Origin: a virus
Taxonomy: Duplodnaviria; Heunggongvirae; Uroviricota; Caudoviricetes
DNA: 64,000 bases
Direction: 5' to 3' (one strand)
Virus record (IMG/VR): IMGVR_UViG_3300042256_000013
Location: 224,001 to 288,000 of that record
Shown here in pieces: positions 58,688 to 63,396 of this stretch; the first letter of the stretch is position 1; every line of letters begins with the position of its first letter. Below the pieces are notes generated by a model that saw only the letters and a list, made by a program, of their open reading frames with translations, was not told where the DNA came from and did not search any database. The translations under genes and the position numbers were made by a program.

Positions 58688-59133
58688 GATAGTATGTCCT
58701 CAACAATTAAAGAACCCCAAAAAGTAATGCCAAGTTTACTTATTTGATTTCGAGCCATTTCTTTTTGTTTTTCTTCGAATACTTCACGTTTAGCTTCAAA
58801 TTGATTTTGTCTACGTTGTTTTAACTGAGTCGTTACTGAATACATATCTTGTGTACCAAAGTATTCTTCATACATTGCCATTTCTGAACTCCGCATTTGT
58901 CCTGAACGTAAAATCTTTTGAATAATTTCACGATAAACTTGTTCTGATGAATATGTAATATTCAAATAGGTACACATTATTTTATATTGATGATTTTCAT
59001 CAATGAAACGATATGATTGACGAATTTTCCCCAAATATACATGACATATACAAGTCTCTTGATAACTTAGATTAAATTCGAAACGAATTTCCATATCTCG
59101 AATACTAAAAACATCAGGCATATTATTCTCCAA
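58684..59133 (-). CDS. Hypothetical protein with C-terminal FWxxL motif
   Basis: ORF ending TFWGSLIVEDILS; real start probably the ATG a few codons in (MPDVF) after GGAG. Confidence 0.6.
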   Translation of the reverse strand: MENNMPDVFSIRDMEIRFEFNLSYQETCICHVYLGKIRQSYRFIDENHQYKIMCTYLNITYSSEQVYREIIQKILRSGQMRSSEMAMYEEYFGTQDMYSVTTQLKQRRQNQFEAKREVFEEKQKEMARNQISKLGITFWGSLIVEDILS

Positions 59134-59142
59134 TTAAAATGA

Positions 59143-59172
59143 AAAAAGGACAGAGCATTTCTGCCTGTCCTT
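59143..59172 (-). terminator. Intrinsic terminator
   Basis: AAGGACAG/CTGTCCTT stem with A run. Confidence 0.7.
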
Positions 59173-59174
59173 AT

Positions 59175-59203
59175 AATGTAGCATATTTTTACTGTACAGT
59201 CAA
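59175..59203 (-). promoter_or_regulatory. Sigma70-like promoter
   Basis: TTGACT-N17-TACATT with TG extension. Confidence 0.5.
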
Positions 59204-59209
59204 GGAGTT

Positions 59210-59551
59210 TTATTCCTGATCCGTTTCGTCTTCAGCTTGAGTTCCAGTATCACGGTCGATATTGGTACGCTTGCCTTTTGCAGTACGGAATTGTGATTCC
59301 AGCTTAGCTACCATGAGGTCAATACCTTTATACAAGTCATCATCTACTGCCTGAGCATTGTAGTTGATACCTTCAAATGTGCCGTGCGAATGTACCTTGA
59401 AAGAAGAACCTTCTTTCGAATACGAAGTATGGAAATCAACATTCACCTCACCAGTGAATTTGTCCAACTTATTGAATGCATCAAAAGTATGATACTCCAA
59501 TTCTTCAGATGTTGCAATACGGTCATTGTAAGAAATTGTATGTTTGATCAT
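59210..59551 (-). CDS. hpf: Ribosome hibernation promoting factor (HPF/RaiA, S30AE family)
   Basis: T.EL......F.KL.KF and A.A...DLY.GID....KL..Q....K.K match short HPF. Confidence 0.75.
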   Translation of the reverse strand: MIKHTISYNDRIATSEELEYHTFDAFNKLDKFTGEVNVDFHTSYSKEGSSFKVHSHGTFEGINYNAQAVDDDLYKGIDLMVAKLESQFRTAKGKRTNIDRDTGTQAEDETDQE

Positions 59552-59577
59552 AAAAGTACTCCCTTATAATTGTACTG

Positions 59578-60519
59578 TTAAAGACTACTTAATAGCATAT
59601 CAACTCGGCCTGAGCCAACTTGATTGTACCATAAAGAATTCTTTATTTCTTTTTTGAACTTATGAGAATTACTATTTTCAACACTTTTCCAGAGTTTATT
59701 AAACCTTGAAAGTTTATCCGCACCCATAGTGTAAGTCATTTCATAAAGTACTCGCTGCTGGTCAATAGTTAAATCAACTGCACGTTTACGTTGAAGTAAT
59801 AGGACAAAATCATCCATTGTGCGTTTCATGTCTTCAATTAAGAGATTATGAGCTTGACCTTTTGTAATACCATTACGGTATTTTACAGCTTCTTTTTCGC
59901 CCTTTCCAATATAATGACCGTAACCTATTGTAAAATTACCAGTACTGTCACGATATGGATAGAACTTTCCATTTTTGAAAGATGGACCAACTTTACCGCC
60001 AAGTAAACGCCGTTTTAATACAGCTTGGGATTCACTTGTTCCTTCTGCTTTCTTGAGATGTTCGAGAATTTCTTCATCGTGAATACTGAATTTAAGTTCA
60101 ATATCAGGTAAAGTTACCTCTTTCAAATCTTCTGCATTAGGAAGGTCAAACAATGTACCAGGATGTATACCAACATCCCTATTAACCACTTTAAGTACTT
60201 TTACATACTCGTCAACTTCAACGTTTTGTGGTTTAATTTTGTTAGCAATAGTCCATAGACTATCACCACTCAGTACTTTGTATTGCTTTCTGCTATCAGT
60301 TGCTTCAGGTTGAACAGGTATCGTCTGAGCTACTGGCGGTTGCTTTTGAATTGTTAATTGTGGTTCTTGTTGTACCACTGCCACTGTAGTAGTGACTGAT
60401 GATGTAGTACGATCATGTGAGTTAAAACCTAATCCAAATGCAGCGGCAAGCAACAGAAAACCTACTATGATATATTTCAATCCAGCACGAGTCTTGAGTT
60501 CTTGTATCGCTTTATACAA
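59578..60519 (-). CDS. Membrane-anchored/secreted LysM + T4-type lysozyme protein
   Basis: N-terminal hydrophobic helix, YKVLSGDSLWTIA (LysM), YRDSTGNFTIGYGHY, NSLWYNQV; TTG start with AAGGAGG. Confidence 0.8.
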   Translation of the reverse strand: MYKAIQELKTRAGLKYIIVGFLLLAAAFGLGFNSHDRTTSSVTTTVAVVQQEPQLTIQKQPPVAQTIPVQPEATDSRKQYKVLSGDSLWTIANKIKPQNVEVDEYVKVLKVVNRDVGIHPGTLFDLPNAEDLKEVTLPDIELKFSIHDEEILEHLKKAEGTSESQAVLKRRLLGGKVGPSFKNGKFYPYRDSTGNFTIGYGHYIGKGEKEAVKYRNGITKGQAHNLLIEDMKRTMDDFVLLLQRKRAVDLTIDQQRVLYEMTYTMGADKLSRFNKLWKSVENSNSHKFKKEIKNSLWYNQVGSGRVDMLLSSL

Positions 60520-60631
60520 AATTCCTCCTTATACACATTTTGTTTGGACTCTATGCGAAATAAGGATAGGAATATGTTACGACCTTATTTGCACAAAGCC
60601 GCTTTTTGGACTTTCTACAATAGTACGAATA

Positions 60632-61210
60632 CTACTTCGAAGTTTTTTCTGTTCTCACAGCGAACAACCGTTCAATGTCATACATTGTAAGTTGTTTCTG
60701 CGAAGCTGTCAATGATATTGACCCTAATGTGTCAAGATCGCAGCTTTTAATTCCTACGCTCATAAATTCATCCAAGCACTGGAGTATATGAGGTGGAACG
60801 TATTCAACAAGTATAGAATGATATTTATCATCCGTCAAGGCAAAATTAAGCAAGGTTTGATCTACCTCACAAAATCCGTCCAGTACTGCCTGAGTAATTA
60901 TAGATTTAAACCACTCTTGATATTCAGGAACTTCAGGGTTAGATAATATTGTTGGTTCAATAGAATTCTGTACTGAAGTACTATATCCGATTACCAATTT
61001 AAGTTCATGTATCATGAATCTATTCAAATTTACATAGCGTTTATTTTTTATAATAATTTTCTGACAGTCATATAAGTATGCTAAAGCTGATGAATGTGTA
61101 TCAAAAACCTTTCCGTTAATGGAATTTACAACATCTCCATTAGCGGAAAGTATTTCTACAAATTGTCCAGTTTTTAGATCACGTATTTTGAAAACTGTAT
61201 CATTAATCAT
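60632..61210 (-). CDS. Hypothetical protein
   Basis: ORF coupled to upstream gene; FKIRDLKTGQF N-terminal motif common in phage proteins. Confidence 0.55.
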   Translation of the reverse strand: MINDTVFKIRDLKTGQFVEILSANGDVVNSINGKVFDTHSSALAYLYDCQKIIIKNKRYVNLNRFMIHELKLVIGYSTSVQNSIEPTILSNPEVPEYQEWFKSIITQAVLDGFCEVDQTLLNFALTDDKYHSILVEYVPPHILQCLDEFMSVGIKSCDLDTLGSISLTASQKQLTMYDIERLFAVRTEKTSK

Positions 61211-61628
61211 AGTAAGTTCTACCAATTGTAATGTGGAAATCACGATACACTGGTAAACCTAACTCACGACGAATATCAGATAACTCTGGACATTCAAAGT
61301 TGATTACATAGAAACTTCCACCCTGTTTCTTATCCTTAACTTCTTTTACATTAGGATAGAATCGGAATTTGAATTTCTGTTTGTGATACTTTTTCCACAA
61401 ATGAATATGCTCATCATCTGGTTTTTCTCCACGAATAATACTTACGTGAGCACCCCATGCTGGCATTTCAAGTTGAATGTGTTTTTCAGTTCGAACAAAG
61501 TACTGATAGTATCGTACCAAATCGTTTGGTAATTGAAGTACGCACCAGTACTGAGTTCGAGATTTCATGTCTTTCCGGTCAGGGTCGTATTCAATATACC
61601 CTTCCAGTTCGATATATTCAGTAGTCAT
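61203..61628 (-). CDS. 2H phosphoesterase family protein
   Basis: Two Hx[ST] motifs: AHVSII and FHITIG; RBS GAGG before ATG 61628. Confidence 0.75.
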   Translation of the reverse strand: MTTEYIELEGYIEYDPDRKDMKSRTQYWCVLQLPNDLVRYYQYFVRTEKHIQLEMPAWGAHVSIIRGEKPDDEHIHLWKKYHKQKFKFRFYPNVKEVKDKKQGGSFYVINFECPELSDIRRELGLPVYRDFHITIGRTYYD

Positions 61629-61653
61629 GATGCACCTCAAGTTAATTAAAATC

Positions 61654-61682
61654 AGTGTAGCACATCAGGTCTAAGCGGTCAA
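61654..61682 (-). promoter_or_regulatory. Sigma70-like promoter of 2H phosphoesterase gene
   Basis: TTGACC-N17-TACACT with TGTGC extension. Confidence 0.6.
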
Positions 61683-61683
61683 A

Positions 61684-61824
61684 TTAAAGACCGAAGATTT
61701 TTGCTACAGATAGAACAAACCCAGCAGCTACGATAGTGCCAAGTGTTGTGATGATTGGGTTAACGGCGAATGATGTTTTGTACATCATTACTAAGCCTAA
61801 GAAGTGATTTCGGATAGTTTTCAT
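61684..61824 (-). CDS. Small membrane protein (46 aa; not in ORF track)
   Basis: Hand translation MKTIRNHFLGLVMMYKTSFAVNPIITTLGTIVAAGFVLSVAKIFGL; RBS AAGGA. Confidence 0.6.
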   Translation of the reverse strand: MKTIRNHFLGLVMMYKTSFAVNPIITTLGTIVAAGFVLSVAKIFGL

Positions 61825-61842
61825 ATTAATTCCTTTTAAATG

Positions 61843-61868
61843 AAAAAGCCCCACCGAAGTGAGGCTTT
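61843..61868 (-). terminator. Intrinsic terminator
   Basis: AAAGCCCCAC-CGAA-GTGAGGCTTT (UUCG loop on minus strand). Confidence 0.8.
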
Positions 61869-61881
61869 GTAGTACTGGCTA

Positions 61882-63396
61882 TTAACCAAGTACTTGATAA
61901 CGTGGGGCATCGATTACGCGAAGCATAACCTGTACTGGATCTACTTCCTCACCGCTCAGAATTGCTTCCAGAACGCTTGGAGAGAAACCACTTACCAGAG
62001 CTACGTTATTCTGGTCGAAACGAACAGGGTTGTTACCCGGACGTGCGTTAAGGTTCCAGAAGACGATAGTTGGAAGTTCATAACCCGCTGCTGCGAAGTC
62101 TGCTTTCGCAGAGTTGTACGCCGTGGCGTTCCAACCACCCGCATTACTTGGGTTGAATTCCATATCAGACAGAACAATTAAGTTCTTAGGCATCTGATCT
62201 GCTGGTACTTGCTGAGCTTTCGCTACACGCAGTACTTCACGGAATGCCGCCTGAATGTTTGTGCTACCACCCCAGAACTGACCAGCACGATAGCCCATCA
62301 GATCACGGTACTTAGCAGCAATGTTAATACCTTGCAGTTCAAACATGCGTGGCTGAGTACTGAAGTTCAGGAACAAGTTCTTGAACGCACCTTCTTGCTT
62401 ATCAGCGATGTACAGACCCAAAGAAATCGCAACGTTCATACAGGTCATGCCTGTATTACCAGCAGGACAGTTCATTGAAGAACTGGTATCTACCATTGGG
62501 ATTGCTTTGTTGTCGCCCATGAAGTTACGCAACTGTTCCCATTGAGCAACGCCCAAAGTCTCAGCAGCAATACCGTTCGCCAAACGAGTTGTTACATCGT
62601 ATGGATACAGAGCACCAGCGTTTACCTTCACTTCACCTTTCTCGATTGAAGAAAGGAACTCGCGGTAACGAGCTTCATCACGCTTCATGAACGCAGGAAG
62701 ATAACGAGCACTCGCAACTGATGGAAGCTTGCTGTATTCGATTTCATCCCATTCGTTCGCACACATCTTCTGTTCAACAGTGTTGCTCAGAGATGACAGA
62801 AGCTTACGATAAGCACGTTCGTTGATGTTCATGGTGGTCATGATCTCACGAGCGATTTTGTTGTTCGCAGCACGATTTTTGTTCGCAGTAGTGTTCATAT
62901 CAATAACGCCAGAAGCGTTTTTCTTGAACTTGTATACACGTGGCAACCACTTAGCACACAATGCGTTACCAGCGGTCAACGCTTCAGAGATTGCCTGGTA
63001 AGCCAGAGTCTTTGCTGCTGCTGTTTTGAAGATCAACAGATCATCCCAGCGACCGAAGTCTGCCAGTACTGGAATCACACGCAGTACTGCATCAGGGTGC
63101 TTAACTTCAAGGTACTTCAAAAGTTCACGAGGGGTATTACGCTCACCCGCACCACCACGAATATCACGTGCCCAAAGAATCATCTGCAAAGCAAGCGTCG
63201 GGTTAGCTTCGTATGCTGCGTCAAATGAATTTTTATACACACCAAGATCTTTGCCACGCAAAGAACCGATCATGAAGAACAGATCGACCAATGGATTCAG
63301 CGTACTTTTCAGTGAAGCTGCACCATTTGCAGTGGTAGAACGGTTTTGTGATGCTGTAGTGTTTACGTTGTTTACTGCGTTTTTAAATGCTGACAT
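61882..63396 (-). CDS. DUF2828 / TROVE(Ro60)-like protein with vWA domain
   Basis: T.NGA, ARDIRGGAGER, GRWDDL, AKWLPR, VEQKMCA, VDTSSSM MIDAS, SDMEF, IVFWNL, VSGFS. Confidence 0.85.
   Translation of the reverse strand: MSAFKNAVNNVNTTASQNRSTTANGAASLKSTLNPLVDLFFMIGSLRGKDLGVYKNSFDAAYEANPTLALQMILWARDIRGGAGERNTPRELLKYLEVKHPDAVLRVIPVLADFGRWDDLLIFKTAAAKTLAYQAISEALTAGNALCAKWLPRVYKFKKNASGVIDMNTTANKNRAANNKIAREIMTTMNINERAYRKLLSSLSNTVEQKMCANEWDEIEYSKLPSVASARYLPAFMKRDEARYREFLSSIEKGEVKVNAGALYPYDVTTRLANGIAAETLGVAQWEQLRNFMGDNKAIPMVDTSSSMNCPAGNTGMTCMNVAISLGLYIADKQEGAFKNLFLNFSTQPRMFELQGINIAAKYRDLMGYRAGQFWGGSTNIQAAFREVLRVAKAQQVPADQMPKNLIVLSDMEFNPSNAGGWNATAYNSAKADFAAAGYELPTIVFWNLNARPGNNPVRFDQNNVALVSGFSPSVLEAILSGEEVDPVQVMLRVIDAPRYQVLG

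Follow-up and report, generated by a model that had tools for sequence, protein, structure and literature searches.

Lysis timing decides the fitness of a phage, and to our knowledge no holin-endolysin control has been described for the jumbo phages of the clade analyzed here. The endolysin gene in the window (the whole 64,000-nucleotide stretch of viral DNA that was analyzed) is preceded by a leader in which an original prediction, made from the sequence alone, had placed a two-state switch over the Shine-Dalgarno (SD) sequence. The question raised by this locus is which of the competing folds of the leader prevails, and how the choice between them could set the translation of a lysis enzyme.

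The endolysin locus of a Rak2-like jumbo phage

By sequence match the region belongs to a Rak2-like (Mimasvirus-like) jumbo phage. The closest matches are Xanthomonas phage XbC2 and Erwinia phage Kaldavass (86-87% identity across 3 kb), followed by CBB and GAP32 (77%) and by Eneladusvirus BF and fHe-Yen9 (74%), and the virus record containing the window is 371 kb long with terminal repeats. The surroundings of the leader are as follows.

59149-59165, minus strand: terminator-like hairpin (59165-59149) after the HPF gene, from a terminator scan
59210-59551, minus strand: HPF/RaiA-type gene (PF02482 at 1e-10), downstream of the endolysin gene
59578-60519, minus strand: predicted endolysin gene, with an N-terminal membrane anchor, a weak LysM and a T4-type lysozyme domain
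60632-61640: upstream ORFs, a 2H phosphoesterase (PF22547) and a 203-aa protein without Pfam family
60684-60712, minus strand: sigma70-type promoter P2 (TTGACA 60712-07, 17 nt, TACAAT 60689-84), inside the 3' end of the upstream ORF

The endolysin matches Pfam PF00959 at 2e-10, with a LysM match below the Pfam threshold, and starts at a UUG codon (60519-17) preceded by UAAGGAGG. Its homologue CBB_187 is a predicted endolysin with an N-terminal transmembrane domain, and induction of CBB_187 was reported to be toxic (PMC5259590). The endolysin gene and the HPF/RaiA-type gene probably form a two-gene unit, and most of these phages appear to encode a lysis enzyme and a ribosome-silencing factor on a single transcript. 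The gene for HPF/RaiA, a ribosome hibernation factor, begins 26 nt past the endolysin gene and is followed by the terminator. In GAP32 (L004, 2917-3530) the endolysin and HPF genes are separated by two additional small genes at a locus where RefSeq annotates HNH endonucleases; the gene order is otherwise kept, which suggests an insertion of the homing type. A gene for a DUF2828 (TROVE-like) protein is also found upstream of the endolysin leader.

Promoter P2 matches the consensus at 11 of 12 positions and has an expected start at about 60677. In seven relatives its -35 region TTGACAGC is invariant and its -10 box keeps TAnnnT, although the sequence is coding. A second sigma70-like promoter (TTGACG-17-TATACT, 60810-60838, minus strand) lies within the upstream ORF, with ATAAATA (60828-22) as part of the spacer; nine relatives share GATAAATA despite its coding position. 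ATAAATA is depleted in the window, where 17 copies were found and about 34 were expected.

Two mutually exclusive pairings in the leader

The leader is read from the minus strand, and its parts are listed from the 5' end.

60619-60636, minus strand: H1, hairpin AGUAGUA-UUCG-UACUAUU, present in the minimum free energy (MFE) structure and holding the stop codon UAG of the upstream ORF (60634-32)
60608-60618, minus strand: b (GUAGAAAGUCC), the 5' strand of H0
60591-60602, minus strand: c (GCGGCUUUGUGC), near-invariant and pyrimidine-rich, with partners b (H0), d (H2) and e (LS)
60579-60602, minus strand: H2 (GCGGCUUUGU-GCAA-AUAAGGUCGU), a 10-bp hairpin with a GNRA loop
60583-60600, minus strand: 5' strand of the long stem (LS)
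60547-60565, minus strand: 3' strand of LS, which shares bases with the anti-SD arm and with the invariant loop AG of H3
60553-60573, minus strand: e, the anti-SD arm of H3 (AUUCC..UCCUUAU..CGCAU)
60521-60538, minus strand: f, the 3' arm of H3 (AUGUG.AUAAGGAGGAAU), with the Shine-Dalgarno AAGGAGG at 60530-24
60501-60520, minus strand: small hairpin including the UUG start (60519-17), present in the MFE structure

Both of the pairings that had been proposed exist. In LS, CUUUGUGCAAAUAAGG (60598-60583) pairs with CCUUAUUU-C-GCAUAGAG (60565-60549) to form 16 bp with one bulged C and two G-U pairs, which ViennaRNA lengthens to 18 bp (60600-60583 with 60565-60547). In the SD pairing, AUUCCUAUCCUUAU (60573-60560) is joined to AUAAGGAGGAAU (60532-60521), and the MFE structure lengthens it by CGCAU:AUGUG (60557-53 with 60538-34). 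Since LS and H3 share 60565-60549 they are mutually exclusive. H2, H0 and the conserved promoter had been missed: the 5' strand of LS can also fold on itself as H2, or pair with GUAGAAAGUCC at 60618-08, and c is common to H0, H2 and LS, which compete for it.

As a whole the 141-nt leader is more stable than all of 200 dinucleotide shuffles (z = -4.0). The hairpin at the start codon is without independent support, because its sequence is fixed by the conserved N-terminus MYKAIQEL. RNAalifold also pairs b (GUAGAAAGUCC) with GGAAUUUUGUAU, which comprises the SD end, the spacer, the UUG start and the second codon, in a helix that would close a three-way junction around H2 and H3 (window 60511-60660; alignment columns 53-63 with 158-169). 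This closing helix is in the MFE structure of 9 of the 21 leaders described below, only when the RNA is cut at +9; it is lost once 20 further coding nucleotides are added, and it is impossible in the 7t3 group. Segment c resembles the start region GGAAUUUUGUAU.

The leader in related phages

The same leader was found in 21 distinct forms in six phage groups, every one directly upstream of the endolysin gene. These were gathered from an intergenic alignment of relatives, from pattern scans of IMG/VR and metagenomes filtered by nhmmer, and by tblastn with the endolysin; the hits of the pattern scans were mostly due to chance, and six of them were new real loci (L139, L131, L057, L026, L033 and L056). 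The groups are the Mimasvirus-like phages (the window, XbC2, Kaldavass, CBB, GAP32 and three uncultivated phages), Eneladusvirus, EJP2/Hallingskeid, the 7t3-like phages, Asteriusvirus (121Q, ph0011, A4 and Ecwhy_1) and RaK2, the endolysin of which is 43% identical.

The leader is present in one copy in the window and, by the b-c pattern, in one copy in the 371-kb genome. A repeated element or promoter motif was ruled out, since within the window a 19-mer and model R1 are each found once, as is the b-c pattern in the genome. An Rfam cmscan of 59000-62000 at E <= 10 gave no match overlapping 60520-60640, and the matches elsewhere in this interval were all far under the gathering scores; a known RNA family is therefore rejected, in agreement with the failure of the original prediction to recognize one. 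A Y-RNA-like partner of the neighbouring TROVE-like gene, an idea prompted by GUCC/GAC, was also rejected, as there is no Rfam Y_RNA match and the resemblance is trivial, and so was a mini-ORF starting from the AUG in AAAAUGUGU, the frame and length of which are not conserved (AUG-UAA in CBB) and which is absent from EJP2.

The common plan consists of seven features: H1, b, a short A-rich linker, c, d, a variable spacer and the RBS lock (e:f). Segment b reads GUAGRAAGUCC and is identical, apart from the R at position 5, in 20 leaders and altered in RaK2; c has the consensus G(C/A)G(A/G)CUUU(G)UGC, and d is its partner in H2, with a loop that is mostly GCAA. The strands joining the helices vary in both sequence and length (2-5 nt and 5-20 nt). 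The start codon is UUG or GUG in the 20 leaders outside RaK2, which has AUG, and a strong SD precedes each.

The stem of H1 is replaced wholesale among relatives (GGAGCGU/ACGCUCC, CUAGUG/CACUAG, UAGUC/GACUA and UUAACUC/GAGUUAA), with changes on both sides in five of its seven pairs. H1 may serve the upstream transcripts as a 3' end or stabilizer and not the leader itself. A sigma70-like -10 box lies inside H1 in EJP2 (L014, ~1375-1410) and in RaK2 (L188, ~450-485), so that transcripts from this promoter would miss part of H1; in Asteriusvirus (ph0011, L184, ~1528-1556) the transcript would begin exactly at H1.

A direct repeat AGUCCAAA, which flanks the long stem and had been suggested as a possible protein binding site, is indeed found at 60612-05 and 60550-43. 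No relative has the second copy; the repeat is therefore incidental, and a protein binding to it is rejected as the trigger.

The locked fold

On long transcripts the RBS is predicted to be sequestered by H3 in all relatives. The MFE structure holds the SD lock in every one of them, with a probability of the anti-SD:SD pairing of 0.97-1.00, and H2 is part of the MFE structure of all Mimasvirus-like leaders. An ensemble with a free SD lies at best 5-17 kcal/mol higher, whether the 5' part of the leader is present or not, and by a second measure that includes RaK2 the freeing of the SD costs 2.5-13.5 kcal/mol. The original prediction, in which the full leader was ON and a 5'-truncated leader OFF, is not supported at equilibrium by these figures, as the full leader is predicted to be locked in every relative and the cost is the same range either way. 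Its anti-SD/anti-anti-SD design before a membrane-anchored muramidase gene is borne out by the folding models.

The locked fold (H2 and H3) has 85% of cells paired in 20 leaders, compared with 36-57% when the partners were slid against each other, on an Infernal alignment that was fitted to the locked structure and is therefore biased towards it. Double-sided changes are seen in 16 pairs versus 8.9 +/- 1.9 in shuffles, where 1 of 500 reaches 16, and the covariation score of the locked fold was reached by none of 500 shuffles. For H3 alone 84% of cells are paired versus 36-61% in slid controls. For H2 the figure is 90.7%, with double-sided changes in 5 of its 10 pairs (20 leaders), including C-G to A-U and A-U to G-C. 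We conclude that the locked fold is the predicted equilibrium state in every relative, with clear covariation.

Such a lock could be a plain constitutive throttle, where only H3 is functional, H1 and H2 stabilize it, LS and H0 are by-products of purine and pyrimidine composition, and translation of the toxic enzyme is always low. The equilibrium state just described and its covariation, the best of all the folds, are what this explanation calls for, and the non-AUG starts suit a low output. It is also in line with the wide variation of the energy gap between the ON and OFF folds, the lock advantage being 2.5 kcal in RaK2 versus 12-13 kcal in Kaldavass, Hallingskeid and L131. However, a weak SD would be a simpler way to a low output than a perfect UAAGGAGG combined with a lock, and several features of the long stem and of segments b and c, given below, are left unexplained. 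We regard an always-low output as doubtful.

Conservation of the long stem

Judged from the sequences, the long stem (open fold) is maintained in the relatives about as well as the lock. It has 82.7% of cells paired versus 36-61% in slid controls, and two pairs with double changes, as counted in 12 Mimasvirus/Eneladusvirus/EJP2 leaders on an alignment fitted to the rival structure, where EJP2 and Hallingskeid are one column out of register so that the LS pairing is understated for those two. Outside these 12 leaders, RaK2 has a 15-bp LS of different sequence (GGCUUGAUGCGGAAA with UUUCUGUAUCAAGCC), about 2 kcal above the RaK2 lock, Asteriusvirus (121Q) has an 18-bp composite equivalent, also of different sequence, and 7t3 has a 13-bp equivalent. 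The pairing of both helices first proposed is thus maintained.

Three details of the relatives are not accounted for by an always-low output set by H3. In L018, d has changed from AAGGU to AAAGC and e from UCCUU to GCUUU, while f on the SD side is unchanged, and in CBB d has gained an A, which is matched in e by a C-to-U change giving a U-U mismatch in H3; in both cases e tracks d and not f. The third is the AG in the H3 loop, which is paired in LS only and is invariant in 12 of 12 leaders.

The composition of the segments must be set against this. When the upstream part was shuffled with e and f kept, the anti-SD arm was still occupied in the nascent MFE structure to 0.42, versus 0.57 in the real leaders (fraction of bases). 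The energy gained from upstream pairing of the anti-SD beats the shuffles (fraction <= 0.05) in only 5 of 21 leaders, with 0.07 for the window, and that it is no better than shuffled sequence in the other 16 speaks for a throttle. Given c, a d that is compatible with H2 pairs with e by chance in about 1 of 4 cases (counted from the sequences), and part of the d:e match thus appears to follow from the composition of c and e. With 12-21 related sequences, covariation for LS and H0 rests on few lineages and has little power.

The toggle between H0 and H2

H0 (b:c) has an energy of about -9.5 to -10.6 kcal (-6.8 in Asteriusvirus) and is only 2-4 kcal weaker than H2 (c:d). Its core pairs are all kept in the 21 leaders. 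In RaK2 three positions are altered in b and three in c, and nine H0 pairs still form; in Asteriusvirus one G is lost from c and H0 pairs in a shifted register. Since b is unpaired in the locked fold, its invariance in 20 leaders is left unexplained by a throttle, and so are the joint changes of b and c in RaK2. Segment c has three partners and d and e two each, and conservation tracks the number of partners.

An invariant b and c beside a freely covarying H1 and d is also the pattern expected of a specific recognition site. A phage or host protein, a small RNA or a ligand could bind b-c (as H0 or H2) late in infection and tip the leader open, in the manner of Mu Com on mom or of a riboswitch. 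An expression platform with exclusive helices is at hand, and genes for RNA-handling proteins are found in the neighbourhood (2H phosphoesterase, DUF2828/TROVE-like, HPF and a CCA enzyme). We nevertheless find a factor-triggered switch unlikely: the several alternative pairings of b and c can account for their invariance, no factor that might act in this way came to light, and the leader matches no Rfam family even at E <= 10. The joining strands vary in length and sequence and no conserved pocket is visible, which makes a small-molecule riboswitch unlikely and argues against the ligand that had been proposed as a trigger.

Predicted folding order of the growing transcript

When the MFE structure was followed on the growing chain, the order was H0, then H2, then LS (with or without H0), and finally H2 together with H3 once the SD had been made. 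This order was seen in 18 of 20 leaders and in RaK2, while EJP2 and Hallingskeid had no LS stage. In the window LS is the MFE structure from the completion of e until the SD emerges. The two-state reading is supported as regards two exclusive helices maintained in relatives and is not supported as regards a full leader that is ON at equilibrium, LS being predicted to win only on the nascent chain before the SD exists.

A crude home-made kinetic walk (Kinwalker-like), in which a refold was accepted only under a barrier limit, gave an SD-open endpoint for the window at limits of 6-10 kcal and the locked fold at 12 kcal; for the window, CBB and GAP32 together, the endpoint was SD-open at 8-10 kcal and locked at 12 kcal, all of these being rough upper bounds. 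The deciding step in the walk was that from H0 to H2. By findpath, 15 kcal separate the nascent fold or LS from the lock in the window; over the whole family this barrier ranges from 5 to 26 kcal, again as rough upper bounds.

The position of the upstream ORF offers another way of opening the leader. A ribosome ending this ORF might melt H1 and its UUUC:GAAA extension, free b for H0 and open the SD, in which case endolysin would be made only from translated read-through transcripts. The upstream stop codon lies within H1 in four groups, the last codons (UUUCGAAG) can pair with b, and in Eneladusvirus there is a 13-bp helix with b; moreover, the last four codons of the 203-aa ORF (UUUCGAAGUAG) are kept at the nucleotide level in four phage groups. 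Against this, the lock is still the full-length MFE structure of the window when the RNA is masked through stop+13, removal of the 5' end does not cut the cost of freeing the SD in 12 relatives, and H0 arises without such help when the chain is folded as it grows. In Asteriusvirus and RaK2 no ORF ends at this place, and the promoter is directly upstream of, or inside, H1. Taken together this makes a coupling to the upstream gene very improbable.

Least probable of all is that late transcripts start inside the lock, as for T4 gene e, or that an endonuclease (e.g. RNase III) removes the anti-SD arm: the T4 lysozyme lock does give ~100-fold repression on long transcripts (PMC3014915) and the long helices could be RNase III substrates, but neither the phage late motif ATAAATA (PMC5259590) nor TAAATA occurs anywhere from b to the start codon in a scan of the 20 leaders outside RaK2, which rules out a late start of the T4 type, and the nearest and sole nearby ATAAATA in the window (60828-22, at -309, conserved in nine relatives) is ~300 nt upstream, so that a transcript from there includes all of the leader.

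A lock with a proposed co-transcriptional gate

The reading that we prefer, with a probability of roughly 40%, is a lock combined with a co-transcriptional (kinetic) gate. Above we described the helices, their mutual exclusivity, their conservation and the ranking of their energies. H2, H0 and the conserved promoter decide which fold forms. From the folding models we infer that the open fold occurs in vivo and that the choice is made by kinetics and not by a factor.

In this reading five conserved segments (b, c, d, e and f), rich in purines or in pyrimidines, form a chain that can pair in two mutually exclusive ways. One is the stable phase, where H2 (c:d) and H3 (e:f) would bury the SD and leave the endolysin untranslated; in the alternative phase H0 (b:c) and/or LS (c+d:e) would leave the SD free. 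Transcription yields b first and then c, d, e and f in turn, which allows the open phase to form first. Its persistence would depend on whether H0 has given way to H2 by the time that e is made. Translation would then be possible on young transcripts, or on some of the transcripts, and be shut off on relaxed ones. A toxic membrane-anchored muramidase would in this way be kept at a low dose coupled to transcription, and the HPF gene further down this RNA would be translated independently. A low-dose design is suggested by the non-AUG starts in the 20 leaders outside RaK2 and by the toxicity of the induced homologue (PMC5259590). The gate is weakened by the balance of energy between lock and open fold, which is not conserved.

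A further-reaching version is possible but more tentative, namely that the leader represents a new class of cis-regulatory RNA setting the dosage or timing of the lysis enzyme in Rak2-like jumbo phages, a five-segment, two-phase leader whose fate would be decided during transcription at the invariant toggle between b:c and c:d, which a phage factor or the speed of RNA polymerase might read. If this were true, the lysis clock would be written in the kinetics of RNA folding instead of in promoters. Should the open fold be used in vivo, the leader would be a rare example from a DNA phage of translation gated by folding order, as well as an uncatalogued RNA motif, and it would account for the endolysin being hard to express. 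The leader also offers a compact natural bistable element of ~110 nt.

Comparison with known systems

The locks of T4 gene e, soc, 49 and I-TevI resemble this leader in that the RBS of a lysis enzyme is buried on transcripts started upstream, which avoids untimely lysozyme, and in T4 gene e the late transcripts start within the lock hairpin (PMC3014915). The jumbo-phage leader lacks the late promoter that T4 has inside its lock, and its elaborate build is nevertheless conserved from RaK2 to Mimasvirus; another route of unlocking is therefore needed.

Like trp-type attenuators and the platforms of translational riboswitches, the jumbo-phage leader pairs neighbouring segments in two phases (1:2/3:4 versus 2:3), the choice being made during transcription in those systems and, by our preferred reading, here. 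Here, however, the output is access to the SD and not termination, and there is no leader peptide, recognized aptamer or Rfam match.

The type I toxin mRNAs hok and aapA3 encode toxic, membrane-acting products and pass through successive transient folds to a final fold that sequesters the SD. They differ in being unlocked by 3' processing and opposed by antisense RNA, neither of which was seen in the jumbo-phage leader. In com-mom of phage Mu, a harmful late function is shut by a stem over the start site and opened via an upstream hairpin, whereas no Com-like factor or binding site was found for the jumbo-phage leader.

In the maturation gene of MS2 a metastable hairpin delays the SD-sequestering fold, so that only nascent RNA is translated (PMC4615214). 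The 5' UTR of the MS2/Levivirus maturation gene shares with our leader an equilibrium fold that pairs the SD with an upstream complement, and a product needed at low dose (PMC4615214). In MS2 a metastable upstream hairpin is the first to hold this complement, and ribosomes can load on nascent RNA only; for the jumbo-phage leader a comparable hold, and the kinetic behaviour as a whole, are predictions. There is no sequence or Rfam relation between the two, and the jumbo-phage leader differs in its DNA genome, in an RNA made by RNA polymerase, in its five interlocking segments and in the extra H0/H2 toggle. By analogy, the MS2 maturation gene is the closest working precedent for this uncatalogued conserved leader of jumbo-phage endolysin genes, which is a variant of the known translational locks.
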